Source: Phycisphaerales bacterium
GTDB lineage: Bacteria; Planctomycetota; Phycisphaerae; UBA1845
Direction: 5' to 3'
DNA length: 64,000 nucleotides
Assembly (NCBI GenBank): GCA_020639095.1
Contig: JACKHH010000005.1
Location: 56,574-120,573, forward strand
Below the pieces are notes generated by a model that was not told the origin of the DNA, made no database searches, and saw only the letters and a program-made list of their open reading frames with translations. The translations under genes were made by a program, and so were the position numbers. Each line of letters opens with the position of its first letter. Position 1 is the first letter of the stretch. Shown piece after piece: positions 1,482 to 52,077 of this stretch.

Positions 1482-2674
1482 GCGCGCATCATCATCCACC
1501 CCAGCCGATGAACCAGAAGCTGATCACGCCCGGCGTGCTGGTGCTGCTGATCCTGACCGGGATCGGTGTGTGCTTTGCGATCTGGCGTTTCATTTTCGGC
1601 ATCGGCTCGATTACAAACCTGGACAATCAGCATCCGTGGGGCATCTGGATCGCGATCGACGTGGCGACGGGCGTGGCGCTGGCGGCGGGTGGTTTCACAA
1701 CGGCTGCCCTGGCGCACATTTTCCATCGCGAGCACTATCACGCGGTGGTGCGGCCCGCACTGCTGACGGCGATGCTCGGGTACACGTTTGTGGGTCTCGG
1801 CTTGATGATTGACCTGGGTCGCTTCTACAACATCTGGCACCCGATTGTGCCGGCGATGTGGAGCGGTCACTCGGTGCTGTTCGAGGTCGGTTTGTGCGTG
1901 ATGTGCTACCTCACGGTGTTGTACATTGAGTTTTTGCCGATCGTGTGCGAGCGGTTGGAGAAGGAAGAGCGCTGGCCGCGTGTTCGCGTGTTCTGCATGA
2001 AGCTGAACGGGCTGGTCGGCAGGATCATGTTCTTCTTCATCATCGCGGGCGTCGTGCTCTCGTGTCTGCATCAGTCGTCGCTGGGCAACCTGATGGTGCT
2101 CGCCCCGTCGAAGATGCACGACCTGTGGGATACGCCGATTCTGTCGCTGCTATTCCTGCTTTCGGCATTCGCGGTCGGTTTTCCGATGGTGATCGTCGAG
2201 TCGATGGTGGCGTCGCGGTCGTTCAAGCTTAAACCGGAGATGCACATCCTCAGCCCCCTGGCGAAATTCGTGCCGGTATTGCTGGGGATATACCTTGGGT
2301 TCAAGGTGGGCGACCTCGCGGTGCGCGACAAGCTGAGCCTCATCGGCGAAGGCTCACCGCAGGCGACGATGTTCGTCGTTGAGATGGTGTTTGGGGTGAT
2401 CGCGCCGTTCATCATGCTGCTGTTCGCCCGCGTGCGAAAATCGCCGACGGGGTTGTTCATTGCGGCGCTCATGATCGTACTGGGCGTTGCGCTTAACCGA
2501 ATCAACGTATTCCTCGTCGCGTTTCAGCCGTTGTACCCGCAGAAGACCTACTTCCCGTCGATCGGAGAAGTGGCGGTGACCGTCGGTTTGATCTCGCTGC
2601 TGATCTTCTGTTATCGCGTCATCGTCAATTACTTCCCAGTTATCAGCCACCCCGGCCAAGCGAGAGCGACATGA
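1478..2674 (+). CDS. NrfD/PsrC-family polytopic membrane protein, quinol-interacting subunit
   Basis: 398 aa, highly hydrophobic with about 8-10 predicted TM helices. Translationally coupled to the upstream Fe-S gene and the downstream cytochrome gene (4-nt overlaps). This is the arrangement typical of NrfCD/PsrBC modules. Confidence 0.8.
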   Translation: MSAHHHPPQPMNQKLITPGVLVLLILTGIGVCFAIWRFIFGIGSITNLDNQHPWGIWIAIDVATGVALAAGGFTTAALAHIFHREHYHAVVRPALLTAMLGYTFVGLGLMIDLGRFYNIWHPIVPAMWSGHSVLFEVGLCVMCYLTVLYIEFLPIVCERLEKEERWPRVRVFCMKLNGLVGRIMFFFIIAGVVLSCLHQSSLGNLMVLAPSKMHDLWDTPILSLLFLLSAFAVGFPMVIVESMVASRSFKLKPEMHILSPLAKFVPVLLGIYLGFKVGDLAVRDKLSLIGEGSPQATMFVVEMVFGVIAPFIMLLFARVRKSPTGLFIAALMIVLGVALNRINVFLVAFQPLYPQKTYFPSIGEVAVTVGLISLLIFCYRVIVNYFPVISHPGQARAT

Positions 2675-3933
2675 ACGCCCGCAAGAGCATTGAACGGTTT
2701 TACTCGCGGCACCTGATCGGTTGCGTGTTGCTGATCGGAGGCTTGTCTCTGATCGGCGCCGTGCGTGCATCCGCACAGACGCAGGACAACGCACCGGTAG
2801 ATACGCCCGCACCCTCACCGCACGGCGCGGAGATCGCGGCGAAGGACTGCGCGAACTGCCACACCTGCGAGAAGCCGACGACCGACGAGCCGTGCTTGTT
2901 GCCGTGTTCGCGGCCCTCAACGGTAGCGATCGGACAGGCATTCAAGAGCAAAACAGGTCCCGACGTGGTGATCCTCGGTGAAATCGCGGACCGCTACCTC
3001 CCTGTGCCGTTCGACCACAAGGGGCACGCAGCCATGGCGGACATGACGCACGGTTGCGACGTGTGTCATCACTACACGCCGGAAGGGCTCGCGCACCCCG
3101 CGTGCAAGACGTGTCATGAGCTGAATCCCAAGCGCGTCGACATGCGCAAACCGAGCCTCAAAGGTGCGTATCACCGGCAGTGCATGAGCTGTCACCGCGA
3201 GTGGAGCGGAAACACCGAGTGCGGCGCGTGCCACGTGGAAACGGCGGACGCCAATGGCAACAAATCCGCGGTGCCGTCCAAGGACGACCTGATCGGCAGG
3301 ATGCACCCCCCGATTCAGGAACCGGAACTCCGCATTTACAAGACGAAGCTGGAAGGTCGCCCCAGCGCCGAAGTGCTCTTCCGTCACAAGGAGCACATTG
3401 ATCGTTATGGGATTTCCTGCGCGGAGTGCCATCGCGAGGACGGCTGCCAGCGCTGCCACAGCGATCAGAAGCAGCCCGAGCGCGTGCGTACGCTGGCCGA
3501 TCATCACAACCCGTGCGCTCGTTGCCACATGGATGTTGATCCGGCGAAAGAAGGCGCGAGTTGCGATGTGTGTCACTACGATCGGCGTACCGGCCCGCCG
3601 CGTCCATTCGAGCATCGCGTGAGCGATCTGCCGCTGATCAAGTATCACGCGGGTAACAGCTGTCGCGATTGCCACACGTCGCTGCCGTTCCAAAAGCTCG
3701 ATCGCGAATGCGGAACGTGTCACAAGGGCTGGTCGCAGGAGACTTTCGACCACGCAGCCGTTACCGGACAGACCCTCGACGACAATCACAAGGAAAACGA
3801 CTGTGCGGATTGCCACGTGGACCAGAAATACACGGTTCCGCCGGCGTGTGGTGAGTGCCACGACGAGGACGACGAACCGGTCATTCGTTTCCCCGATCGG
3901 CGGCCCGGTCCTTGGCGTCGGGCACCGTCGTAA
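2671..3933 (+). CDS. Multiheme c-type cytochrome, 13 CxxCH motifs, Sec signal peptide
   Basis: N-terminal signal LLIGGLSLIGAVRASAQ. Thirteen CxxCH sites counted by eye (CANCH, CDVCH, CKTCH, CMSCH, CGACH, CAECH, CQRCH, CARCH, CDVCH, CRDCH, CGTCH, CADCH, CGECH). Overlaps the NrfD-like gene by 4 nt. Confidence 0.85.
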   Translation: MNARKSIERFYSRHLIGCVLLIGGLSLIGAVRASAQTQDNAPVDTPAPSPHGAEIAAKDCANCHTCEKPTTDEPCLLPCSRPSTVAIGQAFKSKTGPDVVILGEIADRYLPVPFDHKGHAAMADMTHGCDVCHHYTPEGLAHPACKTCHELNPKRVDMRKPSLKGAYHRQCMSCHREWSGNTECGACHVETADANGNKSAVPSKDDLIGRMHPPIQEPELRIYKTKLEGRPSAEVLFRHKEHIDRYGISCAECHREDGCQRCHSDQKQPERVRTLADHHNPCARCHMDVDPAKEGASCDVCHYDRRTGPPRPFEHRVSDLPLIKYHAGNSCRDCHTSLPFQKLDRECGTCHKGWSQETFDHAAVTGQTLDDNHKENDCADCHVDQKYTVPPACGECHDEDDEPVIRFPDRRPGPWRRAPS

Positions 3934-4173
3934 CTTCAATTGCCAACTAACCTAGCGGCGATTCTCGTGTCTCCCTGTGAAAAGGCGGCGCGCGGTGCGC
4001 CGCCTGCTGGGGTGTTTGGCCCGCGCCGGTCGATCTTTACGGGCTCGTGGGCGCGTATTATGATCCCGGCAGTGCCGGAGTGGATTTGTGGACACGGTTA
4101 TGATGTGAAGATCACGAACCGTGGAGTGTCGACAACCGTCAATCGAAATAACAAAAGCAGAGGAGGCACGAAC

Positions 4174-6478: not shown

Positions 6479-7113
6479 AGGGCGCTGCCCGCGTTGCTCA
6501 TCACCAGCATGTGGTTGTAGCCGGATTCGTTATGCGGATCGTGGCACGAGAGGCACTCGACATATCCGTCGGGCAGCACGACCGCGCCGCTCGAAGTCAC
6601 GCGCGTGACCGGGTGATAGTCGTGCCCAAACCCGGGATAGGGAATTCCCACCGGATGGTTCGACCGGCCATGGCCCGCGACGCGCGTGCTCGGATGGAAC
6701 GTGTTCACCGGGCGCTCTTCGGAGATCGTCGGGATCATGTCGCTGGCGAGCGCACCGTCGTGGCAGCGCAGGCAAGTCAGCGTACCGGCACCCGGGTCGA
6801 AAATGCGACCCGCAAGGCGACGTCTGCCCGTGGGGTCGTTCGTCGTGGACATGTCGCGACGATTGAGCCGGCGCGTTTGCGCGGCTGTCGTGCCGAAACG
6901 GCGCGAGAGGTCGGCATTGGGATTCCACAACGGCCCCTGCTTGGGTGGTGTTTCCTGGTGGGGCGTGTGGCACGCGCCGCAGTTGTCATCCTTGGACCAC
7001 GCGGCGTTACTGAAATCGTGTTTGGAACCCTTGATGCCCGCCGTCGCGATGCCGGCGATCAGCAGCAGCGCACCCGGCAGGACGAGTTTCGAAATCCTAG
7101 CCGCTCGCTTCAT
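6454..7113 (-). CDS. Tetraheme c-type cytochrome (periplasmic)
   Basis: ATG at 7113..7111 sits in an ATGA overlap with the stop of the upstream 12-heme gene. Signal MKRAARISKLVLPGALLLIAGIATA. Four CxxCH sites (CGACH, CLRCH, CLSCH, CLTCH). The ORF-track start at 7380 is an antisense 5' extension. Confidence 0.8.
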   Translation of the reverse strand: MKRAARISKLVLPGALLLIAGIATAGIKGSKHDFSNAAWSKDDNCGACHTPHQETPPKQGPLWNPNADLSRRFGTTAAQTRRLNRRDMSTTNDPTGRRRLAGRIFDPGAGTLTCLRCHDGALASDMIPTISEERPVNTFHPSTRVAGHGRSNHPVGIPYPGFGHDYHPVTRVTSSGAVVLPDGYVECLSCHDPHNESGYNHMLVMSNAGSALCLTCHRK

Positions 7114-8918
7114 CGGTTCGCTCCCGTAATGCTCCTGCGGGTGCTCGTAACCCCTTTGGCTGAGCCGGTGCCCGCGTACGGATACCCAATGTGCGTCGAG
7201 CCGTGGCAGACCAACGTGCAGTTGCCCGCCAAACGACCCGTGTCTTCGTATTGCAGCAGACGACCAGTGCCGGTATCGGCTGCACTGACCACTGAAAGAT
7301 CGAAGTTGATCAGGTTGCTGTGATTGTTCGCATTGCCCTGACCGCGATAGACGCCGTGCGCGTCGTGGCACACACTGCACGGCGTGCGGAAGTCGACGAC
7401 GTGCCGGCGATGCAGCGGGAAGCTCTCATTGTTGAGGATGCTGTCGCGGCTGTGGCAACTGTAGCAGAGCGAGTACGCGTCAGCGCTTTCCGCGGTGAAG
7501 TCCGCTGTTTCATAGTTGCGAACGAGCAGCGGTTCATACAGCGAACCGTGCGGACCGTTGGCCCCGGTACCACCGGCGAAGCGCGCGTTGTCGCTGTTGT
7601 GGCAGTCGATGCACGTCACTGTGCTGCCGACACGCAGCGGGGCGATGAGGCTTACCACGTCGTTGTTGCGCCGTGGCCCAGCGACCGGGTGGAATGACGG
7701 GTTCGACGTCTGGAACTCGAGTCGCGTGTTCGTCTGCGTGACCTGCCGCGAATTCGCCTGTCGCGGCCGCAGCACACCGTCGCTGTGGCACTTGAAGCAG
7801 ATCTCGTAGCCGAACTGGGCTTCATCGATCGCGCGTCCGGTGATGGTGATGCCGTTCACACCGACGTTCGGACCCTTCACGGTCTGGCCGAGTGTGCCCT
7901 GCACGGCGCCGATGTTCCGCTCACGCGAGGCATGCGGATTATGGCAATCGACGCACTCGGCGTGCCGTGACATGTTAAAGGGCGTTTCCTCCGGATCGTG
8001 GATGCCGGTGCGCCAGCGGCTGTCGTGATTGCTGCGCTTGCCGAGATCGGCAGCGATGTTGTAACGCGCGACGTCGCCGCTGTGGCAGTTCAGGCAGTTG
8101 TCCTCCTCACGCTGGAAACGCAGCAGCCGTTCGCGCTGCGGCGCGGAGTGGATCTTGTGGCAACTCGCGCACGCGTTGTCCGCGACCGTCGAATACTTGA
8201 GTCGCTCACGCGGATCGACCGCACGCCCGCTGATCGTCTTCTTGCTCAGACCGTGCGCGCCGTGGCGCCAGCCGTTCATCTCGTGGCAGGAGACGCAGAT
8301 CGCGGACATCTGATCGGTGACGCGAAGGAACTCGCCGAGTTCGTTGTTGTGCGGATCGTGGCAGGTCGTGCAATGTACTTCGGCATGCACGCCCAGCGGC
8401 AACTCGCGCGAGACCACCTCGGGCGGACGGATTTCGCTGTCGACGTTGGCAAGCTGACGATCGTAACGGAACCCGATGGGGTGATCGTCTGAGAGGTCGT
8501 TGGTGAGATCGCTGTTCGCGTCGAACCGGCCCGGGGGCATGGTCCGCGCGGTCATGACGATCGGCTCGGTGATCGGACGCGAAAGCACGTTGCCCAGCGC
8601 GAGCGAACCGTCGTGACAGCTCAGGCACATTTTCGACGGGCCCGACGGCTGATCGATGCGCGCGTCGGTCGTCGAGCTTTCGTAGATGCGGTAGTAAAGC
8701 TGCGGATCCTCACGGTTCCACAGCGGCGTTTGCGGGGCTGCGTTGTGCGGCGTGTGGCAGAAGATGCACACCTCGTCCTCGTGGACAGCCCGGATACGAT
8801 TCGGCCCGCGCGCTGAGAGATCGTGCGGCGAGTTGACCACGGACTCGTCCGCGTAGGCGGCTGACGCGATCAGCCACACGATTCCACAGCCCATTGCTCG
8901 AAGCGCGACGTGCTTCAT
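7110..8918 (-). CDS. Dodecaheme c-type cytochrome (602 aa), Sec signal
   Basis: Signal MKHVALRAMGCGIVWLIASAAYA. Twelve CxxCH sites counted (CIFCH, CLSCH, CTTCH, CVSCH, CASCH, CLNCH, CVDCH, CFKCH, CIDCH, CYSCH, CSVCH, CTLCH). ATGA overlap with the NHL gene upstream (8915-8918). Confidence 0.85.
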   Translation of the reverse strand: MKHVALRAMGCGIVWLIASAAYADESVVNSPHDLSARGPNRIRAVHEDEVCIFCHTPHNAAPQTPLWNREDPQLYYRIYESSTTDARIDQPSGPSKMCLSCHDGSLALGNVLSRPITEPIVMTARTMPPGRFDANSDLTNDLSDDHPIGFRYDRQLANVDSEIRPPEVVSRELPLGVHAEVHCTTCHDPHNNELGEFLRVTDQMSAICVSCHEMNGWRHGAHGLSKKTISGRAVDPRERLKYSTVADNACASCHKIHSAPQRERLLRFQREEDNCLNCHSGDVARYNIAADLGKRSNHDSRWRTGIHDPEETPFNMSRHAECVDCHNPHASRERNIGAVQGTLGQTVKGPNVGVNGITITGRAIDEAQFGYEICFKCHSDGVLRPRQANSRQVTQTNTRLEFQTSNPSFHPVAGPRRNNDVVSLIAPLRVGSTVTCIDCHNSDNARFAGGTGANGPHGSLYEPLLVRNYETADFTAESADAYSLCYSCHSRDSILNNESFPLHRRHVVDFRTPCSVCHDAHGVYRGQGNANNHSNLINFDLSVVSAADTGTGRLLQYEDTGRLAGNCTLVCHGSTHIGYPYAGTGSAKGVTSTRRSITGANR

Positions 8919-10015
8919 GACCTGTTCCCGAGATAGTCAAACACCTGGATGCGGTGATTCGCGGAATCCGCCACCCAGATTCGATTGTTTTCGTCGATCG
9001 CCAGACCTGCGGGCAGGGCGAACTTGCCCGCGGTGTTGCCTTCCTGGCCGAAGGCGATCAACAAGGCTCCATTCTGATTGAACACCTGTACGTTCTCGAA
9101 CTGCGCGTCAACAACGTACAAATGCCTGTCGCCGTCGAACGCGACGCCCTTGGGCAGCGCGAAGTCCCCGGCAGCGTCGCCCTTGCGCCCGATCGCGCCG
9201 ACGAAATTGCCGTCGAGATCGAGTAGCTGCACGCGGAAGTTCGCGGAATCCGCTACTGCGATGCGCTCCGCGCCGTCCCAGGCGATGTGCGTGGGGCGGT
9301 TGAACGCGCCTCCGTCATTGCCGGGCCTGCCGATGCGGCGAATCAGTCTACCCGACGGGCTGAAGACGACGATGTCATTCGTGCCGCCGTCGACGACGTA
9401 AAGCTGATCACGCGTCGCGACGTATGCCAAGCCCACCGGCCTGTCCAACACGTCCGCACCGAAACGATGCCGCATATCACCGGCTTCGTCAAACTCAAGC
9501 ACTTCGCGGCGCTTGGCATCGGTAACAAAGATGCGACTGCCCACGAAACAAGCGCCGATCGGCGCGCCCAAGCGCTGGTCTTCCCAGCCAGTGACGAGGC
9601 GGTGCGTTCGCTCCACCAGGTTCACAATGTGCACGCCCGCAACGCCGACGTCCGCAACCGCGAGCAAGGGGCCCTTGCGTGCGAGCGAATGCGGCGACGA
9701 AAACTTGATCGGGCGACGGTTGCCGCGAAGCGCGGCTTGAAACGCTTCGCCACCGGACTTGCCGGCTTCCAGGTCGTCGCTACCGCTCAGCACGCCGACA
9801 AAACGAATGCGTGCGGGCTCGGGCGGTTTCGGCCAGACGCGCGTTTCGCCGCGCTGGCTGAAGAGTTCGCCCTTGGGTTGCGCGCATCCGGTGAACAACG
9901 TTGCGGCCAATACCGCTGCGAAAGCCCTCGTTGTTCTCCGCTCCCTGACAGTCGCGGCTCGGATTTTGCTTGCTCCTGCGCGCATCTGTTTGAGATTAGT
10001 TCCGCGCCAGGACAT
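8915..10015 (-). CDS. NHL-repeat beta-propeller lipoprotein
   Basis: Lipobox LFTGCAQ. NHL blades (IFVTDAKRREVLEFD, LYVVDGGTNDIVVF, IAVADSANFRVQLLD, LYVVDAQFENVQVFN, IWVADSANHRIQVFD). Overlaps the end of the beta-barrel gene by about 20 nt. Contains one copy of the 35-nt repeat (9931-9965). Confidence 0.8.
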   Translation of the reverse strand: MSWRGTNLKQMRAGASKIRAATVRERRTTRAFAAVLAATLFTGCAQPKGELFSQRGETRVWPKPPEPARIRFVGVLSGSDDLEAGKSGGEAFQAALRGNRRPIKFSSPHSLARKGPLLAVADVGVAGVHIVNLVERTHRLVTGWEDQRLGAPIGACFVGSRIFVTDAKRREVLEFDEAGDMRHRFGADVLDRPVGLAYVATRDQLYVVDGGTNDIVVFSPSGRLIRRIGRPGNDGGAFNRPTHIAWDGAERIAVADSANFRVQLLDLDGNFVGAIGRKGDAAGDFALPKGVAFDGDRHLYVVDAQFENVQVFNQNGALLIAFGQEGNTAGKFALPAGLAIDENNRIWVADSANHRIQVFDYLGNRS

Positions 10016-26354: not shown

Positions 26355-26903
26355 TTACTTGAACACCTGATGGCACACCCACACGGCTGCCAGGATTCCA
26401 GCCAGGTCGGCGAGCAGGCCCGCGACCATTGCGTGACGCGTCTTCTTAATGCCCACCGATCCGAAGTAGAGCGCGAGGATGTAGAACGTGGTGTCGGTGC
26501 TGCCGAACATCGTCGACGCCACCTTCGCGTCGAACGAATCCGGATTCGCCTGGATGACTTCCGCGACGAGCCCCAGGCTGCCTGAACCCGAGAGCGGCTT
26601 CATCAGCGCGACGGGCACTACGTCAGCCGGCATGCCGATGCTCAGCGTCCACGGCGCGATCAGATCGGAGATGTAGTCCAGCGCTCCCGACGCGCGAAAC
26701 ACGCCGATGCCCACCAGGATCGCGATGATGTACGGCAGGATTTGCAGGAAAATCTCAAAGCCTTCCTTGCCGCCTTCGGTGAACGACTCGTACACCTTCA
26801 CGCGCTTGCACATCGCATAGCCGATGATCATGAAGAACAGCAGCGGGATGGTGAGCATCGACACCTGATTGACGACCAGCTTGAACATGTTCGCGGCGAT
26901 CAT
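26355..26903 (-). CDS. SpmB-like nucleoside-recognition (Gate) domain membrane protein
   Basis: Hydrophobic 182-aa protein whose sequence resembles spore-maturation protein B / YjiG-family proteins. Overlaps the upstream partner by 4 nt. Confidence 0.6.
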   Translation of the reverse strand: MIAANMFKLVVNQVSMLTIPLLFFMIIGYAMCKRVKVYESFTEGGKEGFEIFLQILPYIIAILVGIGVFRASGALDYISDLIAPWTLSIGMPADVVPVALMKPLSGSGSLGLVAEVIQANPDSFDAKVASTMFGSTDTTFYILALYFGSVGIKKTRHAMVAGLLADLAGILAAVWVCHQVFK

Positions 26904-27883
26904 GCGTCCACCTCCTGGCTGCTCGTGCCTTCGCCGCCCGACTCAGCCAGCGCGGCTTGCACGGCGAAGAAGGGCAGGCGACCGAGCAGCTTCGCAGCGA
27001 TGATTGCGGTGACGGTGGCTGTTCCGCCCGCGACCATACACGTTCCGATGATCTCGAACGGATTGCTGCAACCGGCGCTCTGACGCACGGCCAGCAGCGT
27101 CGTCGGGATCATCGCAAAGCCAGCCGTGTTGATCGCGAGCAGCATCACCTGTGCGTTCGTCGCAACGTGCTTGTGCGGGTTGAGCGACTGAAGGTGCTTC
27201 ATCGCCTTCAAGCCGAACGGGGTCGCGGCATTGCCCAGACCGAGCACGTTGCACGTGACGTTCATCAGGATTGCGCCGCTCGCGGGATGATCCTTGGGCA
27301 CGTCGGAAAAGAGAAAGCGGATGATCGGGTGGAACACGCGGGCGACGAGCTGCACGATGCCCGCAGCCTCTCCGACGCGCATCAGCCCGAGGAACAACAC
27401 CATCGTCGCGACGAGGCCCAGCGCGATATCGAAACCGATCTTGGCGTAGTCGAACGCGGCATTGGTGAACGCGGGAAGTGTCACCAGCGTGCCGTGACGC
27501 ACGCCGACGCCATTCACCGCCACGACGTAGTCACCAGCCGCCCGCGAGTCCCAGGTGAGCAGGAAGTGCTCGCCGACCGCCTCCGCTGAAATGAGCCACG
27601 GCTTGTCACCGGATTCCTCTTTCACGCGGGCGGAATCGTCGAAGCTCAGCGCGCCGTTCGCGAGCGTCAGCGCGAACGTGTAATCGGTGGGGGTGTCATC
27701 GCCCGCGAGTTGAATCGTCAGCGCGTTCTCGCCATCGACAAGCCTGTCCGCGGGTAGCACCGTTGACGTAGGCTGATAGTGCTGCACGACGCAAAGCGCG
27801 AATGCGCTGAGGACCATCAAGCCCCAGATCGTGTTGATGTTGAGCAGACCGCGCAACAGTTTGCCAAGAGAACCCATTGCCAC
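26900..27883 (-). CDS. SpmA-like nucleoside-recognition domain membrane protein with an N-terminal soluble extension
   Basis: The C-terminal roughly 180 aa are hydrophobic with motifs resembling the Gate/SpmA family (NVTCNVLGLGNAATPFG). An unusual roughly 110-aa non-membrane segment follows the first TM helix. Start is ATG 27876 or GTG 27883. Confidence 0.55.
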   Translation of the reverse strand: MAMGSLGKLLRGLLNINTIWGLMVLSAFALCVVQHYQPTSTVLPADRLVDGENALTIQLAGDDTPTDYTFALTLANGALSFDDSARVKEESGDKPWLISAEAVGEHFLLTWDSRAAGDYVVAVNGVGVRHGTLVTLPAFTNAAFDYAKIGFDIALGLVATMVLFLGLMRVGEAAGIVQLVARVFHPIIRFLFSDVPKDHPASGAILMNVTCNVLGLGNAATPFGLKAMKHLQSLNPHKHVATNAQVMLLAINTAGFAMIPTTLLAVRQSAGCSNPFEIIGTCMVAGGTATVTAIIAAKLLGRLPFFAVQAALAESGGEGTSSQEVDA

Positions 27884-28054
27884 TATGCCTCCGTCGTGTC
27901 ACGCAACCAAACGCAGCACACCAAGGGAGCCGCGCCGGAAAGAAAGCGGAATCCGAGCCGCGACTGTAAGGGAGCGGAAGAACAAAGAATGCCCGCAACA
28001 GCAGGACAAGTCAAAACAATCGAGAGACGCGCATTCAATGCGCGGAATGAAACC

Positions 28055-29743
28055 CTATCCGAACCGCCGCGCCGCGAGAAACGTCCGCGCACGCTCGACT
28101 GAGTATAAGCGGTCGCCTTCCTGCAAGCTGTCGATGCGCACTTCCGGTGGGCCGCTGTGCATGAAATGCGTAGGGGTAATTGCTACACCGACGTGGTAGA
28201 TTCGCCCACAGTTGTTGATGAAGTAGAGCAGGTCGCCGGGTGCGATCGCGTCGGGATTCCACCGCGTCGCCACCAGTCTGCCGCTAAGGAATTGCTGGCC
28301 CGCGTCACGCGGCAGAGCGAGCCCGCTGCGCAAGCTCGACTTCTGCGCGAGCCCGCTACAGTCCAGACCGATCGGTGATACCCCGCCATAAATGTATGGA
28401 ACGTGCAGCAATTCCAGGGCGGCAGAGATGCGTGCTTCGCCGTTGCGCGACGCATCCTGAATACGCACGTCCCGCGCGCCGACTTCGAGCGGGTCGTCGT
28501 GGGGATGCGTCAGGAGCATGCGCGCATCCGCTTCGCGCGCGATGGGCAGAACGGCTCCTCGTGGAATCCGCCTGCCCCCCAGATCGATATCACGCTGTAG
28601 TACCGCCCTTCGCGTCGCGGTGTAGGGCGCAAAGTCGGCTGCGGTGAGTATTCGCAAACGCTCCTCGCGCACCCAGCCCCAGTAGCCGTCGTCGCCGTGA
28701 ACGAGCAGGAACCCGTCTTTGTGATCGAGCAGGAGGACGGGTTCGCCATAGAGCAGTTGCGAACGCAGGCCAGCCGATTCGGACGGCGCGGCGTAGGTGA
28801 GCGCCATGCTTGCCAAGCATACGGCGAACCGCTCGCCGTTGAGTGCGCCGTCCTCCGGCAGCAGTCGAAGCTCGTTGATGACATTCTCGATGCCCACGCA
28901 GCGCAGCGCGTCGGCGAATGTGTCACGCAGCAGTGCGACGTTGGTTGCGCCGGCAATACGGACGGTGTCGCCTTCAACGGTGACATTAGGTTGGCAGTAA
29001 ACGAACGTGCGATCGGAAAACACCGTGCGGACAAAGGTGTCGCAGAACCACGCGGCGTATTCGATCGGCAGCTTGCCGTGCGGCCAGACACGCTCAGCCG
29101 TTTCCTGCATTTCCTGTTCCGGCGTGCGATCGACGAAACGCGGCACGGGTGTTGCGCTGGGGGAGGCGTGCGGCGTTGCGGCAGCCTGTTTCTGCACAAA
29201 GGCAATCATGCCGCGACAAACCGCCTCCGCGACCTTCTGCGGGATGAGACGTGTTTTTACTTCGCAAGCTTCCGCAGCCGTTGCGGTGATGGCGATACCG
29301 GTGGGCGCGGAGTTAGCTCGCAAGGATACATCGGGTAGGGCGTCAATCGTGTGGAATGCGTCGACGATCGCGGATTCGAGCGGCGACGATTGCGTGCTTC
29401 CGATTCGTGCTTGGACGGTGCACGTGAATTGTGTGTTGTCGGATGGCTCGGATTGGGAAAAGGTAATATCGACGACGACATCATTGCTTTCCGCTCCCTT
29501 ACAGTCGCGGCTCGGATTGTCGTCCGCGCGTGTCATGATGGGGATGCCGCCCGCTTGTTGCGTGAAGTGAAAGAGCACGCCCGCGGTCATGAGCGAAAGG
29601 TCATCAAGTCGCCGTTGCGCCGCGTCATGTGCTCCGCCGCCATTTGCGTCGATCACCACGACTTGTCCGCGCAGCGCATCCGCCTGCGGTCGCCAGGGCC
29701 GCACGTAGGTTTCGATCACGCGTTGAACGTTTTTCGTATCCAT
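28055..29743 (-). CDS. NlpC/P60-family cell-wall peptidase with a long N-terminal extension (possible amidase-like and SH3-like segments)
   Basis: C-terminal NlpC/P60 catalytic signature (LDCSGL...GDLLYF...HVGVAI). Likely starts are ATG 29743 (MDTKN) or 29800 (MPRAV). The 5' part of the track ORF (to 29941) lies in a structured non-coding region. Contains one copy of the 35-nt repeat at 29483-29517. The N-terminal VVVIDANGGG segment is only weakly amidase-3-like. Confidence 0.6.
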   Translation of the reverse strand: MDTKNVQRVIETYVRPWRPQADALRGQVVVIDANGGGAHDAAQRRLDDLSLMTAGVLFHFTQQAGGIPIMTRADDNPSRDCKGAESNDVVVDITFSQSEPSDNTQFTCTVQARIGSTQSSPLESAIVDAFHTIDALPDVSLRANSAPTGIAITATAAEACEVKTRLIPQKVAEAVCRGMIAFVQKQAAATPHASPSATPVPRFVDRTPEQEMQETAERVWPHGKLPIEYAAWFCDTFVRTVFSDRTFVYCQPNVTVEGDTVRIAGATNVALLRDTFADALRCVGIENVINELRLLPEDGALNGERFAVCLASMALTYAAPSESAGLRSQLLYGEPVLLLDHKDGFLLVHGDDGYWGWVREERLRILTAADFAPYTATRRAVLQRDIDLGGRRIPRGAVLPIAREADARMLLTHPHDDPLEVGARDVRIQDASRNGEARISAALELLHVPYIYGGVSPIGLDCSGLAQKSSLRSGLALPRDAGQQFLSGRLVATRWNPDAIAPGDLLYFINNCGRIYHVGVAITPTHFMHSGPPEVRIDSLQEGDRLYSVERARTFLAARRFG

Positions 29744-30569
29744 CTTGCCTACTTCTTTGTGAGACACTTGATCCTCATGCGCAACAACTGCGCGGGGCAT
29801 GATACCGCGCCGCGCGAGCGTCGCCCAACAGGCGGTATCGGCGTGCCAGCCCGCGTCATCGCGCGTTGCGAATCGCCGTATTTTCAGGGGACAAATGTGA
29901 TTTATACTTGACACCTTCCTGCGTTGAGGTATATTTCCCAAACACGTCGCGTTGGGCGGCGTGCATGTGTAGTGGAGGTTGCCATAGTGGCTACCCGTCA
30001 GCTCGACATTTTCAAAAGCAGCCGGCGAAACGAATGGCTCGCGCTATCGCTGATAAGCGGTGGGCTCATGCCGTTGGATTCCGCGTGCGGAATCACGTTC
30101 GCCCATGACGGGCCTCCCGGGTAGTGTGCAATTGTTTTTTGCCCATCCACCCCGGAGGCGCTTGCGACAGCGGCCTGCGGGGTTTTTTGTTGCGCATGTC
30201 TTTCCGCGTAACCCCTGACGGTCTCTTCGGTTAGCGATCGTATTGAACCGGTTGCAGTTGGTACGCGTGTCGATTGCCGGGGCTGTTGTGTCCCGATGCG
30301 ATGCGCGGACGGAGAAGGTGCGCGCATGTGTGCCACTGCTCTTGAGCAGTGGGACATGTCACAGAGCGTCGCTGCGTATCGCGTCCACTGCTCAAGAGCT
30401 GTGGCACAGGGTACGTCTCGCTCGCATGGAGAAAAGTCAATCCGCGCACGCGTTGCGCGGCGGCCTGAAGGATATGTCGGTTGTCGTACCGGCGGTGTGC
30501 GTGGGCATCGTTCGCTCGATTTGCTCGCGTACGTTCCGCGTGACGGGGTCTGAAGCGACAACGTAGCAT

Positions 30570-30645
30570 GTGTGAGAAGCTCAATGGTCGAGCAACACGA
30601 CTTAGGATCGTGCTGGTGCGGGTTCGAATCCCGCCTCAAACACCA
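30570..30645 (+). tRNA. tRNA-like gene (76 nt, encoded CCA). Anticodon loop reads UAG (Leu), but the variable loop is short like a class-I tRNA and there is a G3:A70 mismatch. Possible pseudo-tRNA or tRNA-derived attachment site
   Basis: Manual cloverleaf: acceptor GTGTGAG/CTCAAAC with one mismatch, D-stem GCTC/GAGC, anticodon stem CACGA/TCGTG with loop CTTAGGA, 5-nt variable loop, T-arm GCGGG-TTCGAAT-CCCGC, discriminator A, CCA. Confidence 0.45.
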
Positions 30646-31439
30646 ACCCGGAGTCGTCCCCCCGCCCCGCTCAGTCAACCGGCTGGTCGAGGCGGGGGGA
30701 TGACTCGCCCGGCGAATAGCCGGGACGGCGTAAGCCGCTACCGAGCCTTGGCGGGGAGAGTGCTTCGTCGCGTCGCCGGTTGTCCCGATCGCACCGTATG
30801 GGCTGCATCATCAGCCCGTGCGCCACGACGGGCGACACCGTCGAAGCGGTTCGAGCGAACGCGGATACCGCCGAGTCAAATCGCCAATCGTGCGATCTCG
30901 CGTCAGACGGAAAGCAGACGCGAGTTCGCACGAACGGCGGTCACTGACCCGGCTTAAGCGTTCGCCCACCGCGTTCCGCGGGGCGATGCGAGAGAAGGCT
31001 CTCCTCGTCGGGCAGCGGCGGCGAACGCGTTGAGCGACATGACACTGAATCGGGAAAGCAGAATAGGGATTTACGAAATAGCAGGATGGCAAACTCCTCC
31101 CCCTCTGGGGGAGGGCAGGGTGGGGGTAGTCAGCGAAAGTGTTCTTGAGTCAAAGACTCCTCCGCCGACTCAGAAACTGCATCGGTTCACGCGAAGTCGT
31201 CGCGCTTTGCAACGGCTTCGCTTGATGCCCTCCCCTTGCCCCTCCCGGAGGGCGGGGAGTTGGACCGTCCTGGCTATGTGGGGAAAGACCAATCCTGGTC
31301 GCGAATGCAGGCAGGATGCCTGCACCACAATACAGAACCCCGGGCGTCTAGTCCGGGGCGGAACAAACAGTGACGTCTCGACGTCGGGACGCACATGAGT
31401 TTGCATGAGCCCACGCGCTCGAGAAAGGAGGTTATATCC

Positions 31440-42818: not shown

Positions 42819-42997
42819 TCCGCGGGGATTATAAGAGGACACCTGCATATCCTCAACGCGATGCTGGGACGGCTGGTGGGAGAGCGCCAAGTGTGCCACT
42901 GCTCTTGAGCAGTGGAGTCGATGGCGAGTGGGCCGCACAGATCATGACCACTGCTCAAGAGCAGTGGCACGCGGAAGCATGATCACTGGAACTGCGA

Positions 42998-44706: not shown

Positions 44707-46173
44707 TTGCCACCACACACCTACGAAATCTGGTCGCTCGTTCCGCCGGTCCTAGCCATCACGCTGGCCATCGCAACGCGCCAGGTGTTCCTCTCGCTCT
44801 TTGCGGGAATCTGGGTGGGATATCTCGTCATCGCACAGTGGAATCCCTTACTCGCCAGCGTGGAGGCGCTTGAAGCGTGCGTTGCGGTCTTCAAGGACCA
44901 CGGCAACACGTGCGTGATCCTTTTCTCCGCGATGGTTGGGTCGTTGATCGCCGGCGTGCAGCGGAGCGGGGGCGTTGACGGGTTTGTGCAGTTCGCCCAG
45001 ACGTCACGAATTGTACGCGGGCGGCGCAGTGCCGGACTGCTCGCGATGGCGGTGGGCATGGCCACCTTCATCGAGTCGAGCATCGTGTGCCTGGTGACCG
45101 GTGCGGTGGCCAGACCGATCTTCGACAAGCTGCGGATGTCACGCGAGAAGCTTGCGTACGTTTGCGACACCGTGTCCGCGCCCACGTGCGTGATGATTCC
45201 GCTGAACGGGTGGGGGGCGTTCGTGCTGGCCCAGCTTGTGGCGTCGGGGTTGGTTGATGATCCCGTGCCGCTGCTCGTCCACGCGGTGCCGCTGAACTTC
45301 TACGCCATCACCAGCCTTGTCATGCTGTTCGTCGTGCTCGTGACGGGCTGGGACATCGGGCCGATGCGCGAAGCCGAACGCCGTGCCCGCGAAGAGGGCA
45401 AACTGCTCCGCGACGGCGCCAAGCCCATGATCACCGACGAGGTGCTCGCGATGCCGCCCGAGCCCGGCGTGACGCCGCGGGCACACAATATGATTCTGCC
45501 CATCGCGGTGATGGTCGCGATGGTGCCTGTCAGCTTGTACTACACCGGCGTCACCAGTCTCGAGCCGGGCACTCCGCGCGAGTTCTGGAATATTCTGCGG
45601 GCGTGTTCCGGAAACACTTCGGTGTTCTATGCGGTGACAACTGCCGTCGTCTTCGCCGGGGCGCTCTACCGCTTGCAGGGCATCATGACGGTCAAGGAGT
45701 ATGTGGACGTTGCGATCAAGGGCGCGTCAGCGCTGGTACCGCTGGCGCTGCTGATGGTCTTCGCGTTCGCCATTGGCCACCTCTGTCGCCACGAACTGCA
45801 CACCGGTGATTACGTCGCGTCGGTGATTGGGAAAGGCATGCCCAAGTGGCTGGTGCCGGGCGCGGTGTTTGCGATCTCCTGCTTTATTGCTTTCTCCACG
45901 GGCACGAGCTTCGGCACGTTCGCGATCATGTTGTCGATCGCACTGCCCGTGGCGGACACGATCGGTGTCCGCATGGACCTGGTCGTAGCCGCTGTCCTTG
46001 GTGGCGGGGTCTTCGGCGACCACTGCTCGCCAATTTCCGACACCACTATCGTATCATCCATGGCCTCAGCATCCGACCACATCGACCACGTCAGAACACA
46101 ACTACCCTACGCACTAATGGCCGGGGGCATCGCGCTGGTTCTGTATTTATTGGCAGGAATCGCACTCGTTTAG
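44707..46173 (+). CDS. Na+/H+ antiporter NhaC-family transporter
   Basis: Polytopic membrane protein of 488 aa with NhaC-like sequence. Non-ATG (TTG) start in the track. The exact start is uncertain. Confidence 0.6.
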   Translation: MPPHTYEIWSLVPPVLAITLAIATRQVFLSLFAGIWVGYLVIAQWNPLLASVEALEACVAVFKDHGNTCVILFSAMVGSLIAGVQRSGGVDGFVQFAQTSRIVRGRRSAGLLAMAVGMATFIESSIVCLVTGAVARPIFDKLRMSREKLAYVCDTVSAPTCVMIPLNGWGAFVLAQLVASGLVDDPVPLLVHAVPLNFYAITSLVMLFVVLVTGWDIGPMREAERRAREEGKLLRDGAKPMITDEVLAMPPEPGVTPRAHNMILPIAVMVAMVPVSLYYTGVTSLEPGTPREFWNILRACSGNTSVFYAVTTAVVFAGALYRLQGIMTVKEYVDVAIKGASALVPLALLMVFAFAIGHLCRHELHTGDYVASVIGKGMPKWLVPGAVFAISCFIAFSTGTSFGTFAIMLSIALPVADTIGVRMDLVVAAVLGGGVFGDHCSPISDTTIVSSMASASDHIDHVRTQLPYALMAGGIALVLYLLAGIALV

Positions 46174-46284
46174 CGGCGACCCGAAGGGGAGCGCGTGTTT
46201 GGCGCTACCGCGTACTTTGCCACGGTCATCATTGATCAGAGGTATGACACCGTTATCGTTAGTGCGTAGTGATCATTGAACGCA

Positions 46285-47050
46285 CGCTCGCGTTCCGCTC
46301 GCCGCTAAACGTGGGTTTGTGGGGACAAGTGGCGGTCGGCGAATCAATCGAATCGGGCCACGAATGACCATTCTTGACGGCGCTTCCCCTCTTTGATTGG
46401 GTTTTGTGTTACATAGTCGATTGCGGTACGTAGTGCCGCTTCGCTGTTGAGGAACACACGCCAATGCCCGCGCGACCACATGCGTGGTGGCAGGTCACCT
46501 GAGTCTCCTCCGAATTCAGCGAGCGGGTGAACTCGCTCACGGGTGACCTGCTTTGTGGCTGCGGCTTTTGCCAGATTGATGATTTGTTCAACGCTATAGC
46601 GGTGTCGCGCGACAACCAAGTGTACGTGTTCGGGCATAATGCTGCATGCCCAGACAACCACCCCTGATTTCGCGAAGTAAGCGGCGAATCCGCGAGCAAT
46701 CGCACGCGCTTGCACGCCGGTCCAGGTGACCGGTGGATATCGCAAGGATTGCTTTGCACGAAGGCGCAGTTTGTGATCGTGCTCTTTTCCGGCTTGGGAT
46801 TGCCGCGTCCTCGCGACCTTGGCCGGCCCAAACTTTCGAAGCTCCCAGCAGCGAACGAAGTCGGACCATGACCCCCGAGGATCGTTAGGCAGCCAAAACC
46901 CGTACGCGCCAAGGATGACGTGATATCCGAGCACCATGATAAAGGACCCGCGGATACACCGTGCCACAGGCAATAGCGTTCATCGGCGCCCAGAATGGGG
47001 ACATTCTGATCGCGCCATACGCGCTCGCGTTCCGCTCGCCGCTAAACGTG
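46285..47050. mobile_element. Putative IS200/IS605-like or RAYT-associated unit: Y1 transposase gene bounded by 29-bp perfect direct repeats
   Basis: CGCTCGCGTTCCGCTCGCCGCTAAACGTG occurs at 46285-46313 and at 47022-47050. The only gene between them is the HUH transposase. A hairpin GTGCGT-(12 nt)-ACGCAC lies just left of the left copy. Confidence 0.5.
46344..46937 (-). CDS. Y1 (HUH) tyrosine transposase, IS200/IS605-family / REP-associated (RAYT-like)
   Basis: HUH motif HVHLVV and a downstream catalytic Tyr region. ATG at 46937 (MVLGYHVIL...). The track start at 46973 is a TTG. Confidence 0.7.
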   Translation of the reverse strand: MVLGYHVILGAYGFWLPNDPRGSWSDFVRCWELRKFGPAKVARTRQSQAGKEHDHKLRLRAKQSLRYPPVTWTGVQARAIARGFAAYFAKSGVVVWACSIMPEHVHLVVARHRYSVEQIINLAKAAATKQVTRERVHPLAEFGGDSGDLPPRMWSRGHWRVFLNSEAALRTAIDYVTQNPIKEGKRRQEWSFVARFD

Positions 47051-48126: not shown

Positions 48127-48503
48127 GGCAGGTGTGAGGCTTGTTGGTTAGGCTTGAGGCTTGAGACCTGAGGCTTGAGGAGAAGGGTACGCGTCACCGC
48201 GGGTGGACTGACAAGCTCTGCTTGTCAGTGGGACGTAGAACGAGTGGCGTCAATCGTAGAGTCCATGGACAAGCAAAGCTTGTCCATGCCACCCGACCAA
48301 TACAAATGCGCAATGAGAAGAGAATCAGAACCCCGGGCGCCAAGCCCGGAGCAAATAGCAGGAAATCTCAAGGCAACAAGAAGACGCGCCGACCGCCATC
48401 CCTACAAGCCTCAAGCCTCAAGCCTCAAGCCTCAAGCCTCAAGCCTCAAGCCTCAAGCCTCAAGCCTCAAGCCTCAAGCTTCAAGCCTCAGACCTCAAGC
48501 CTC
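48127..48503. repeat. Complex structured repeat, copy 1: inverted blocks of a 9-nt tandem repeat flanking a roughly 225-nt palindromic core
   Basis: Left block GAGGCTTGA-type units at 48127-48178. Core with palindromes CTGACAAGCTCTGCTTGTCAG (48208-48228) and CCATGGACAAGC-AAA-GCTTGTCCATG (48263-48288), plus the CCCCGGGCGCCAAGCCCGG hairpin. Right block of about 11 units of GCCTCAAGC at 48405-48503, the reverse complement of the left block. Confidence 0.8.
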
Positions 48504-48942
48504 GCCCCCCCCGGCGACGCAGTGTCACCACCGCAAGCACAACGCCCGCCCCCAGCGCATCCGCCACGAAGTCCTCAATGTCGCGATGCCTGCCCGACAG
48601 CGGTTGCAGTATCTCCGTCAGCGCGCCAAAGGCCGCGAAGATCGCCCACCAGCGCAGCGCCCACGCGCGCGTACACGTCTCACCCGCCGACCGCCGCGCG
48701 AGCGCGCCCAAGTACGCAAGGATCGCAAACGTCGTAAAGTGAACAACCAGGCCCTTTTTCGAAATGACAATCGGTGGACGCGGCACCTTCGGCGAGAGCA
48801 GCAATCCCGTCAGCGTGACCCAGTACACCGCCCACGCCGCGACGATCAGGCGATGCCAGCGAATCAACAACGGCTGGTGACCAACATCGGGCGAGTCAGT
48901 CACGCCGCGCTCCGCTCGTGGCTGGTTCTTCCTCGTAGACAA
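48481..48942 (-). CDS. VanZ-like family membrane protein
   Basis: Four TM helices and the VanZ-like pattern (LTEILQPLSGRHRDIEDFVADALG). The C-terminal codons run into the 9-mer tandem repeat. Overlaps the parA-like gene's 3' end. Confidence 0.5.
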   Translation of the reverse strand: MSTRKNQPRAERGVTDSPDVGHQPLLIRWHRLIVAAWAVYWVTLTGLLLSPKVPRPPIVISKKGLVVHFTTFAILAYLGALARRSAGETCTRAWALRWWAIFAAFGALTEILQPLSGRHRDIEDFVADALGAGVVLAVVTLRRRGGRGLRSEA

Positions 48943-50149: not shown

Positions 50150-50351
50150 CGGTCATCCCTTACCGATTCGGGGCAGGATTTCCCAGCAGCCGGAGGGTGT
50201 CCGTAATCGAATCGACCGTCGCCGGAGATTTCGCCCAAGCTGCCTATTCTGCGAGGATCATATCGCACGCAGGCGACGAGGTGAAGGAGGAATTCGCAAG
50301 CAAGGTGCGGGGTTGTGAGTTTTGATGGTAAGACGTGCCGTGAAGGCGTGA

Positions 50352-50620
50352 GGCTTGAGACCCGAGGCTTGAGAAGTAAGAGACGCGCTGTCGCGGGCGG
50401 CACTGACAAGCTCTGCTTGTCAGTGGGGCGAAGAACGAGTGGCGTCATGTGTTGAGTCCATGGACAAGCAAAGCGCGTCCATGCCACCCGAGCTATTCGA
50501 CTATTGCGTTGGGAGGAGAATCAGAACCCCGGGCGCCAAGCCCGGGGCAATTGGCACGAAACCTCAAGGCGAAGTGAAGACGCACTGACCACAACCTACA
50601 AGCCTCAAGCCTACAACGTC
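50352..50620. repeat. Complex structured repeat, copy 2 (shorter paralogue of 48127-48503)
   Basis: Shares GTGAGGCTTGAGAC...GAGGCTTGAG, CTGACAAGCTCTGCTTGTCAG (50403-50423), GAACGAGTGGCGTCA, TCCATGGACAAGCAAAGC, GAATCAGAACCCCGGGCGCCAAGCCCGGGG, and the terminal CAAGCCTCAAGCCTACAA with copy 1. Confidence 0.8.
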
Positions 50621-50874
50621 AGAAGCGCATCGATCAGATCTTCGTCCTCGATGCCCAGGTCGTGATATGCCGCACGCTTCTCGTCTTCGGAGAGCGTATC
50701 ATCGGCTGCGATGGCTTCGAGATCGTCCAGCACATAGATCTGCCCGTTCTCGCCGGTCTCGGCATTGTCGAAGTCCGGGTTGCGGGCGGTGAATACACCG
50801 CAGCCAGTCGGCAGCAGAGCGAGCCCGCCAAGGAGGCAAAGGGTGGCCAGTCGATTCCAGGTCATGGGCTTCAT
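50611..50874 (-). CDS. Small acidic lipoprotein (about 87 aa)
   Basis: ATG at 50874 (MKPMTWNRLATLCLLGGLALLPTGCG lipobox). Acidic C-terminus. The track start at 51060 is an extension. Confidence 0.5.
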   Translation of the reverse strand: MKPMTWNRLATLCLLGGLALLPTGCGVFTARNPDFDNAETGENGQIYVLDDLEAIAADDTLSEDEKRAAYHDLGIEDEDLIDALLTL

Positions 50875-51805: not shown

Positions 51806-51956
51806 GGCTTATCCCTCTGCGGAATCCGGCGTAGCAAGAAACCCAAATGCGATTGTACCCACGATCGTGGCAATGCAACCTCTCCCGCCAGGTAAAATCC
51901 ACATCACGAGGCCGGGGGTGCGACAGCACCCGCTTTCCGCGCAGCGGCCTAGGCCG

Positions 51957-52077
51957 GGGCTTCAGCCCCGGTGAAGCGCTATCCATCAAAGCCTGTGCCC
52001 CGCCGTAGGCGGCGAGGCGGCGGGGGCAGGAGAGGCAGGCAGGCCGCACCCAACCGGCAAACGCCCGGCCTAGGCCT
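51957..52077. repeat. GGCCTAGGCC-containing hairpin element (long inverted repeat with internal sub-hairpins). A related copy lies at about 63263-63330
   Basis: GCGCAGCGGCCTAGGCCGGGGCTTCAGCCCCGG ... CCCGGCCTAGGCCTGCGCG. A second locus reads CCGGGGCTAAAGCCCCGGCCTAGGCCGGCCCTTCAAGGCCGG. Confidence 0.55.

Follow-up and report, generated by a model that had tools for sequence, protein, structure and literature searches.

Which kind of element places the same 30 letters on both sides of a gene? The question arose in a 64,000-nt stretch of DNA from a Phycisphaerales bacterium (Planctomycetota; NCBI GenBank assembly GCA_020639095.1, contig JACKHH010000005.1, positions 56,574 to 120,573 of the forward strand), called the window throughout. 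Two copies of a short repeat lie there in inverted orientation around most of a C40 peptidase (cell-wall hydrolase) gene, and a third occurs at the 5' end of a lipoprotein gene. An original prediction, made from the letters of the window alone, saw in the pair terminal-inverted-repeat-like boundaries of the hydrolase gene and proposed a target of site-specific inversion, the remnant of a miniature inverted-repeat transposable element (MITE) or a motif tolerated in coding DNA. Our analysis leads to another answer: the copies very probably belong to a dispersed family resembling repetitive extragenic palindromes (REPs), whose spread would be due to a class 3 Y1 enzyme acting in trans, the inverted pair being a by-product.

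The repeat, named E-type here, has a shared core of about 30 nt, AATCCGAGCCGCGACTGT[A/C]AGGGAGCGGA[A/G], present at three sites of the window. Copy 1 (27950-27980, plus strand) is intergenic and shows a 5' foot CCGA and the hairpin CCGC-GA-CT-[GTAA]-GG-GA-GCGG. Copy 2 (29488-29518, minus strand) is located inside the C40 peptidase gene in sense orientation, where it reads NPSRDCKGAE, and copy 3 (9935-9965, minus strand), with C as loop base, is found at the 5' end of the open reading frame (ORF) of an NHL lipoprotein, where it reads IRAATVRERR. When up to 3 mismatches were allowed, exactly these 3 core matches were found, as compared with 0.00 expected from 100 dinucleotide-preserving shuffles. 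Alignment of the copies with 50 nt of flank on each side displayed a core with sharp edges amid unrelated flanks, and DNA identity among them amounted to 29-30/30 nt. A gap of 1509 nt separates copies 1 and 2, whose complementarity reaches 100% over 30 nt. The three copies and their inverted pair some 1.5 kb apart are real, as had been predicted; the unit is nearer 30 nt than the 35 nt first proposed, a length reached only by including a loosely similar GAACAA tail, and the intervals were off by 1-5 nt.

Directly 5' of copy 1, and head-to-tail with it, a degenerate copy (GAGCCGCGCCGGAAAGAAAGCGG, 27927-27949, plus strand) displays 5/23 mismatches. It is unlikely to be a chance match since it abuts a true copy and since a control on reversed sequences of about 1.7 Mb (846 kb, both strands) gave only 5 matches with 5 mismatches or fewer. 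The copies are not regularly spaced, as clustered regularly interspaced short palindromic repeats would be. Copies 1 and 2 are followed by an ATG about 9 nt past the core, at a GGGAG-to-ATG spacing of 14 nt. This Shine-Dalgarno-like arrangement was rejected as a signal because of that spacing, because copy 3 has no such ATG and because the resulting ORFs are short or out of frame. No Rfam family reached its gathering score in the window, none reached E <= 1 within 2 kb surrounding the copies, and none matched the element in 10 loci where copies are paired; the sole matches were tRNAs and an unrelated Acido-Lenti-1 match in locus L119.

Relationship to the published class 3 REP-like sequences

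A small 'class 3' of HuH-Y1 (TnpA-like) proteins, hosted mainly by Planctomycetes, Acidobacteria and Proteobacteria, was described by Quentin et al. (2018, BMC Genomics 19:475; PMC6006769), together with REP-like hairpins that flank the corresponding genes (their Table S1, i.e. Additional file 2). Class 3 tnpA-Y1 genes encode proteins of about 178 aa with the HuH motif NHVH and the Y motif YV[VI][AENY]EQ. For class 3, Table S1 covers only Legionella pneumophila, Planctomyces limnophilus and Solibacter usitatus (PMC6006769). It lists CCGAGCCGCGACTGTGAGGGAGCGGA and CCGAGCCGCGACCGTAAGGGAGCGGA in five L. pneumophila strains and a slight variant CTGAGCCGCGACCGTGAGGAAGCGGA plus CCGAGCCGCGACCGTAAGGGAGCGGA in a sixth; for S. 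usitatus it gives CAGAGCCGCGACCGTTAGGGAGCG.. and CCGAGCCGCGACTGTCAAGGAGCGGTTG, and for P. limnophilus a diverged form (PMC6006769). The published structure is .....((((..((....))..)))). with a foot CnGA, and the hairpin is credited, in the paper's wording, with a 'weaker secondary structure' (PMC6006769).

The window sequence CCGAGCCGCGACTGT[A/C]AGGGAGCGGA differs from the first Legionella entry, CCGAGCCGCGACTGTGAGGGAGCGGA, by only one loop base. Foot CnGA as well as the CCGC-GA-CC-GTNA-GG-GA-GCGG sequence and hairpin were recovered in the window copies. These copies are dispersed among unrelated flanks (three plus one degenerate in 64 kb, with at least 119 stretches elsewhere), and the host is a member of one of the published phyla, which also dominated the matches of the scan described below. 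On the strength of their sequence, the window copies can securely be assigned to the class 3 REP-like family of Quentin et al. (2018). Neither the exact DNA string nor six peptide readings of it were found in searchable literature text, save for an unrelated primer match.

Copy density in the window, 3 per 64 kb, corresponds to about 47 per Mb. The genome of Solibacter measures about 10 Mb. Some 600 copies were reported for S. usitatus (PMC6006769), and both densities are of the same order. The window copies thus resemble the published elements in foot, ((((..((....))..)))) hairpin, host phyla and copy density. They differ in their setting, a Phycisphaerales metagenome-assembled genome in which they stand away from any class 3 gene, and in a common local 5' extension, AATCC. 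Furthermore, two of them lie in coding DNA, which Quentin et al. mention for REPs of subclass 2.4 and for some of subclass 2.8 alone (PMC6006769).

Dispersal, hairpin and gene context

A scan for the 22-mer GAGCCGCGACNGTNAGGGAGCG, with one genome per species, recovered it in at least 119 stretches, with at least 158 exact instances and unrelated flanks. The descriptions in this paragraph hold among the matches listed. Hosts were mostly Bryobacterales/Solibacter (Acidobacteriota), Phycisphaerae, Planctomycetia and Gemmataceae, and few belonged to Legionella, other Gammaproteobacteria, Anaerolineae, Binataceae or Desulfobacteraceae. Copies occurred as singletons, as inverted pairs (head-to-head and tail-to-tail) and as tandem or partial tandem copies (loci L007, L018, L019, L051, L080, L108 and L118). 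Spacing inside inverted pairs was about 10-150 nt, the intervening sequences being unrelated; inverted copies stood 150-165 nt apart in L020 and L039 and flanked ordinary genes in L085 and L105. While 87% of random positions in the same loci were deep in a stop-free frame of at least 150 aa, this was the case for 46% of the copies, so the family is preferentially, if not exclusively, extragenic. One in-frame copy (..APLPDGRGSEG..) was found in a valyl-tRNA synthetase ORF (L113).

Just upstream of a full copy, two to three tandem repeats of its 5' half (GAGCCGCGACC plus 5-8 nt) were often present (L007, L018, L019, L051, L080, L099 and L105). These tandem halves might be a footprint of copying, through repeated cleavage and rejoining or through slippage at the hairpin.

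The consensus of the family is (C)nGA-G-CCGC-GA-CC-GTNA-GG-GA-GCGG, numbered as a 26-mer (nnGAG-CCGC-GA-CC-GTNA-GG-GA-GCGG-n). In its hairpin, an outer stem of 4 bp and an inner stem of 2 bp are separated by a GA/GA internal loop and capped by the tetraloop GTNA; the facing GA dinucleotides could form a tandem G.A mismatch. While the window copies have CCGA as their foot, CnGA or ACGA was seen elsewhere among the matches listed. Within the core, only the third tetraloop base is free to vary (A 32, C 40, G 48 and T 10 in the 130 exact copies listed), and the variable A/C base of the window copies falls in this loop. For the 131 distinct variants listed, 94.4% of stem cells were paired, against 32-61% for slid registers. 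Pair 12-19 was C-G in 116 of them, G-C in 11 and unpaired in 3. Cells with a double change numbered 13, against 1.6 in shuffles, and none of 500 shuffles reached 13. Covariation at pair 12-19 supports the hairpin fold. By inspection, stops never run through the core in 4 of the 6 frames. In the remaining two they appear only with A or G as loop base (the forward-strand frame), or with the reverse-strand equivalent, or T. With most frames stop-free, copies can persist inside genes.

As to gene context, the NCBI proteins P0001, P0063 and P0183 were 100% identical to ORFs of the window. Copy 1, which is antisense to transcription, occupies the 171-nt spacer between the stop (28055) of the C40 peptidase gene (28055-29743, minus strand; NLPC_P60 and SH3_16 domains) and the start (27883) of a Gate-domain (SpmA-like) gene (26900-27883, minus strand). 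No promoter or terminator signal stood out around it; the one terminator-like match (28005-27992) lies outside the copy and is at shuffle expectation. Copies 2 and 3 are in sense orientation. In an alignment of the C40 protein with 19 full-length homologues, copy 2 (context ..DDNPSRDCKGAESNDVV..) came right behind a conserved MTRADD[RN]P motif, in a stretch whose length and sequence varied in all 19 homologues. Copy 3 (context ..IRAATVRERRTT..) is read in another frame than copy 2, as had been predicted for the two genic copies. The best homologues were 50% identical to the C40 protein and 68% identical to the NHL protein, and homologues of both proteins lacked the peptides encoded by the element.

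The start of the NHL/6-bladed beta-propeller lipoprotein ORF (8915-10015, minus strand) deserves closer attention. From ATG 10015 the protein begins MSWRG.. and displays 44 residues ahead of the lipobox Cys, while the NCBI gene call (P0063, 331 aa, MAATLFTGC..) uses a TTG downstream of the element and leaves 8 residues before this Cys. In homologues the N-terminus reads M[CS]W.. and is located 24-30 residues ahead of the lipobox Cys. Because of these N-termini, ATG 10015 is most probably the genuine start, so that copy 3 would form an in-frame part of the signal peptide, within its positively charged n-region. The NCBI start would then be truncated to just past the element, with loss of most of the signal peptide, and the repeat has probably misled the annotation. 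The earlier placement of copy 3 in the signal region of the lipoprotein consequently depends on this start: it holds with ATG 10015, whereas with the TTG start the copy belongs to the 5' leader.

The N-terminal 190 or so residues of the C40 protein (VVVIDANGGG..MTRADD..VVVDITFSQS), a domain conserved in all homologues, had no Pfam match; they may correspond to an Amidase_3 (MurNAc-L-Ala amidase) fold in which other residues stand in place of the metal-binding histidines. Neighbouring genes between 26 and 38 kb encode Gate-domain proteins, tRNA-Leu, an SPFH protein, ribosomal protein L31, RF1 and an ATP-grasp protein, and no ORF for an invertase, integrase or other recombinase was found in 26.3-38 kb. 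An att site derived from the tRNA-Leu gene (30570-30645, about 1 kb off) was considered and rejected, as there is no integrase and the repeat is unrelated to the tRNA.

A sister repeat around a Y1 gene of the window

The window also encodes a Y1 transposase-like protein of 197 aa (46344-46937, minus strand; motifs PEHVHLVV and YVTQNPIKEG). It matched Pfam Y1_Tnp with 23.6 bits (cutoff 23) and NCBIfam REP_Tyr_transpos with 49 bits, below the cutoff of 80, and had more than 4500 homologues, labelled RayT by the Joint Genome Institute. Three copies of another 30-nt repeat, called R-type here, accompany the gene (46169-46193, plus strand; 46285-46309 and 47022-47046, minus strand). They read CGTTT-AGCGGCGA-, continued by CCCGAAGGG or GCGGAACGC and closed by -GAGCG; the same repeat can also be written as CGTTTAGCGGCGA, then CCCGAAGGG or GCGGAACGC, then GAGCG. 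Together, gene and repeats make up a REPtron/TIRtron-like unit (46167-47048). R-type repeats bracketed homologues of the Y1 gene within about 15-100 nt in 8 of the 8 genomes examined, and their inner stem covaried (CCC/GGG, GCC/GGC, CGC/GCG and ACC/GGT).

E-type and R-type repeats have a common frame of 13 fixed bases (AGC-S-GCGA, a short inner hairpin and GAGCG) with a GA/GA internal loop. They are distinguished by the foot (GTTT in R-type, CnGA in E-type), by the inner hairpin (a 3-bp stem with a 3-nt loop, against 2 bp and GTNA) and by their distribution, since R-type stays beside its gene as terminal inverted repeats whereas E-type is scattered. The R-type system shows that such a hairpin frame serves as termini of a Y1 gene. 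As a partner of the E-type element, this particular gene was rejected: the gene and its 8 homologues are flanked by R-type and lack E-type, and a metagenome scan for a repeat followed by codons for WLPNDP gave 0 loci with E-type (50-80 nt ahead) against 24 with R-type. Its Y motif (Y..NP), which is of the kind found in REP-associated tyrosine transposases (RAYTs) and not of the class 3 kind (Y....Q), also counts against partnership.

RAYTs resembling those of class 2 were encountered in L004 and L113, with other flanking repeats. In L004, from a Bryobacteraceae metagenome-assembled genome with an E-type element, the gene (7087-7749, minus strand; ..VVMANHVHLLI.. / ..YIEANPVKAGLV..) is split by a frameshift and flanked by yet another inverted repeat, reading ..RKVSTRHARVRAPR.. 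at both sides. In L113, one uninterrupted valyl-tRNA synthetase ORF (89-4117, plus strand) contains an in-frame RAYT-like insert (..VVMPDHVHLLF..YILNNPVKAG..) bracketed by a different repeat (..SRGTGVPPVS..), and the element copy reads ..MAPLPDGRGSEG.. farther along.

Other repeats of the window should be mentioned. A palindromic repeat containing TGGCAC, GTGCCACTGCTC[TT/AA]GAGCAGTGGCAC, forms two pairs 12.5 kb apart (30325-30408 and 42888-42970), the first one just upstream of tRNA-Leu. A block of about 250 nt is duplicated 2.2 kb apart (48150-48523 and 50344-50623, 79-89% identity) with hairpins ACTGACAAGCTCTGCTTGTCAGT and CCCCGGGCGCCAAGCCCGGGG. It ends in a heptamer array, (CAAGCCT)n, of about 15 units (48391-48523), whose inverted partner AGGCTTGAGGCTTGAG is located at 48150-48186. 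Short GC-rich hairpin repeats occur at 51945-51972 and 63262-63319, and also at 31333-31359, 48326-48352 and 50522-50548 (CGGCCTAGGCCGGGGCTTCAGCCCCGGT; CAGAACCCCGGGCG.C.AG.CCGGGGC). The source genome holds several distinct REP-like families.

Proposed movement in trans and its alternatives

How the E-type copies may have spread can be proposed by analogy with the TnpA-REP enzymes of Escherichia coli, Stenotrophomonas and Marinomonas and with IS200/IS605. TnpA-REP enzymes bind single-stranded REP hairpins, cleave next to them at CT or CA and form a 5'-phosphotyrosine link (PMC8266576). They require the 5' tetranucleotide for recognition, and its role in the choice of the cleavage site, like that of the IS200/IS605 guide sequence, was demonstrated for the Marinomonas enzyme Mb (PMC8266576). 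Likewise, an E-type element exposed as single-stranded DNA, for instance on the lagging-strand template, would fold into its small hairpin, and the foot CnGA would be what the enzyme recognizes or is guided by. This enzyme, of class 3 Y1 type and encoded at another site of the genome, would then bind the element, cleave beside the hairpin and copy or move it in trans. Copies would land mostly between genes and survive within them only where some 10 extra residues are tolerated; such places would here be the hypervariable linker of the C40 peptidase and the n-region of the lipoprotein signal peptide. Copies 1 and 2 would have arisen by independent insertions, their inverted arrangement being incidental.

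Canonical REPs and REP doublets forming hairpins (REPINs), with their class 2 RAYTs, offer the closest comparison. They, too, are short (20-40 nt) dispersed repeats with a hairpin and a 5' tetranucleotide; in E. coli, Pseudomonas and Stenotrophomonas they stand alone, in inverted doublets or in clusters, for the most part outside genes and now and then in frame within one. For both kinds, a HuH-Y1 enzyme with a single gene copy and single-stranded DNA as its substrate may bring about movement in trans. Yet the E-type foot is not the canonical GT[AG]G, its hairpin is much weaker, being interrupted by the tandem G.A internal loop where canonical REPs are stable palindromes, and its core is near-identical across phyla while REP/RAYT pairs are usually lineage-specific. 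Its published partner belongs to another enzyme class, with a Q in the Y motif as in IS200/IS605. In canonical systems the RAYT gene of a genome is flanked by the dispersed repeat itself, and the RAYT-like gene of the window is flanked by R-type and not by E-type. As for REPIN-type doublets, the replicating unit of canonical systems, the window copies are singletons or tandem, and inverted doublets in both arrangements are common elsewhere. The subterminal hairpins of IS200/IS605 are similarly single-stranded, recognized by an HuH-Y1 enzyme and provided with a tetranucleotide guide 5' of the hairpin; they are, however, parts of an autonomous insertion sequence with distinct ends, while E-type elements are free-standing 30-nt units present by the hundreds.

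Several points weigh against this proposal. Neither the window nor the 119 listed loci yielded a class 3 gene with HuH/Y-motif regular expressions or with phmmer, the latter run against all ORFs with approximate sequences of E. coli YafM, IS608 TnpA and ISDra2 TnpA as queries. Nor did one appear in the inspected loci of Legionella and other Gammaproteobacteria, where copies were few, in PLSDB blastn matches, in annotated regions of Legionella adelaidensis or through tblastn of the window Y1 protein against plasmids. Class 3 enzymes are, by the account of Quentin et al. themselves, without biochemical tests (PMC6006769). The hairpin is weak: for the window variant, folding gave -3.4 kcal/mol at a z of about 0 and a structure that lacks the inner stem (C-T / G-G), while the consensus reaches -5.5 kcal/mol with a z of only -1.1. 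Covariation stems largely from one or a few subfamilies (GCGCGTNAGCAA), and the variants used for it were gathered by similarity to the consensus. No close relative supplied an empty site, the best homologues being 50-68% identical, so that insertion, boundaries and target duplication are matters of inference. Finally, REP-RAYT systems are mostly confined to one lineage; a 22-mer that is near-identical in several phyla is unusual among them and leaves room for a function in the host.

This last possibility is the alternative that fares best, although we regard it as unlikely as a full explanation. The repeat would then be a site bound by a conserved host protein or a structural signal (a transcript-end stabiliser, a terminator or a nucleoid/topology site) kept by selection and no longer, or never, mobile. 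Conservation of the core across several phyla indeed exceeds what the weak hairpin alone explains, no cognate transposase was seen near any copy examined, and many intergenic inverted pairs in other genomes recall the REPs of E. coli. Roles in mRNA stability and supercoiling have been ascribed to REPs (PMC3733652, PMC8266576). Placed regulatory sites would hardly be expected, though, to occur in both orientations relative to transcription or inside coding DNA in different frames, and partial tandem duplications amid unrelated flanks are rather a signature of proliferation. The window copies are singletons and not terminator-like pairs, neither terminator nor promoter signals stand out near copy 1, and it is with class 3 Y1 genes that such repeats were associated in print (PMC6006769). 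A host function is nevertheless compatible with movement by a Y1 enzyme, as a secondary, domesticated role. A DNA uptake sequence was also considered in view of the inverted pairs and the tolerated genic copies; cross-phylum identity and the published Y1 association fit it poorly.

Considerably less probable is that the copies are solo ends of a classical DNA transposon, i.e. MITE or terminal-inverted-repeat remnants left by a DDE transposase. The inverted copies of L020 and L039 have a MITE-like spacing, but sequences between paired copies are unrelated and range from about 10 to 150 nt, and head-to-head and tail-to-tail pairs both occur. A MITE has its own terminal inverted repeats, a target-site duplication and a length of 50-500 bp; the E-type unit comprises 30 nt without terminal repeats of its own, and flank alignment displayed no target-site duplication around any of the three window copies. 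As partner of the repeat, the paper names an HuH-Y1 gene and no DDE transposase (PMC6006769), and in all 8 genomes examined it is a Y1_Tnp gene that R-type, the sister repeat, flanks. The predicted remnant of a miniature mobile element or motif tolerated in coding DNA nevertheless comes near the answer, a dispersed, non-autonomous family that is REP-like and not a MITE.

Slightly less credible still is a site-specific inversion switch, in which copies 1 (27950, plus) and 2 (29488, minus) would recombine and the 1.5-kb segment between them would flip to turn the hydrolase on or off. Typical invertons (Hin, Fim and those of Bacteroides) have arms that flank a promoter or alternative C-termini, with the recombinase gene adjacent. 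The inverted arms are present here and complementary throughout, but they belong to a sequence dispersed in hundreds of unrelated places, with a third window copy 18 kb off, and no recombinase is encoded within several kb. The segment has no promoter-like module and corresponds to the 3' three-quarters (1.4 kb) of a conserved coding sequence; its inversion would split the protein after residue 85. Homologous recombination between arms of 30 nt would be rare. Family scatter, lack of a recombinase and the severed coding sequence leave the predicted inversion target unsupported. The pair around the hydrolase gene has no special status either, since neighbours in a randomly oriented family are inverted half the time, and the proposed gene boundaries turn out to be singletons of a family scattered in both orientations. 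A coincidence of peptide motifs in two proteins, suggested by nothing beyond two copies lying in ORFs and already judged improbable in the original prediction, is practically dismissed by the different frames of the genic copies, the intergenic third copy in opposite orientation, the sharp-edged DNA identity and the homologues devoid of these peptides.

With movement in trans by a class 3 Y1 enzyme retained as the preferred explanation, the locus contributes to a family that is already known: class 3 REP-like sequences occupy one paragraph and one supplementary table of the 2018 paper (PMC6006769). What is new are additional copies, which extend this little-studied family to Phycisphaerales, a lineage without entry in Table S1 (PMC6006769). 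Mildly new are the in-frame genic copies with their likely effect on start-codon annotation, the letter-perfect core across phyla and the frame common with RayT-like termini. A false lead is removed as well, as the inverted pair very probably marks neither an inversion switch nor a mobile hydrolase cassette. For annotation, such repeats create spurious peptides and can mislead the choice of start codons.

More tentatively, the E-type core may be more than selfish DNA and represent an ancient DNA-recognition code common to two classes of Y1 enzymes. We propose this, while holding it for rather doubtful, because the 22-nt core is conserved letter for letter across phyla and because the AGCSGCGA...GAGCG frame, with its tandem G.A loop, recurs in the termini of WLPNDP 'RayT-like' genes, a second and much larger Y1 family. 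If so, horizontal transfer of class 3 REPtrons could have disseminated the code, or a domesticated role in the host could have preserved it, and protein-coding genes would time and again gain short peptides (..SRDCKGA.., ..AATVRER.. and ..PLPDGRGS..) through in-frame colonisation. The near-identity of the E-type core and the frame it has in common with R-type provide a set of substrates for how Y1 enzymes read a hairpin and its foot.

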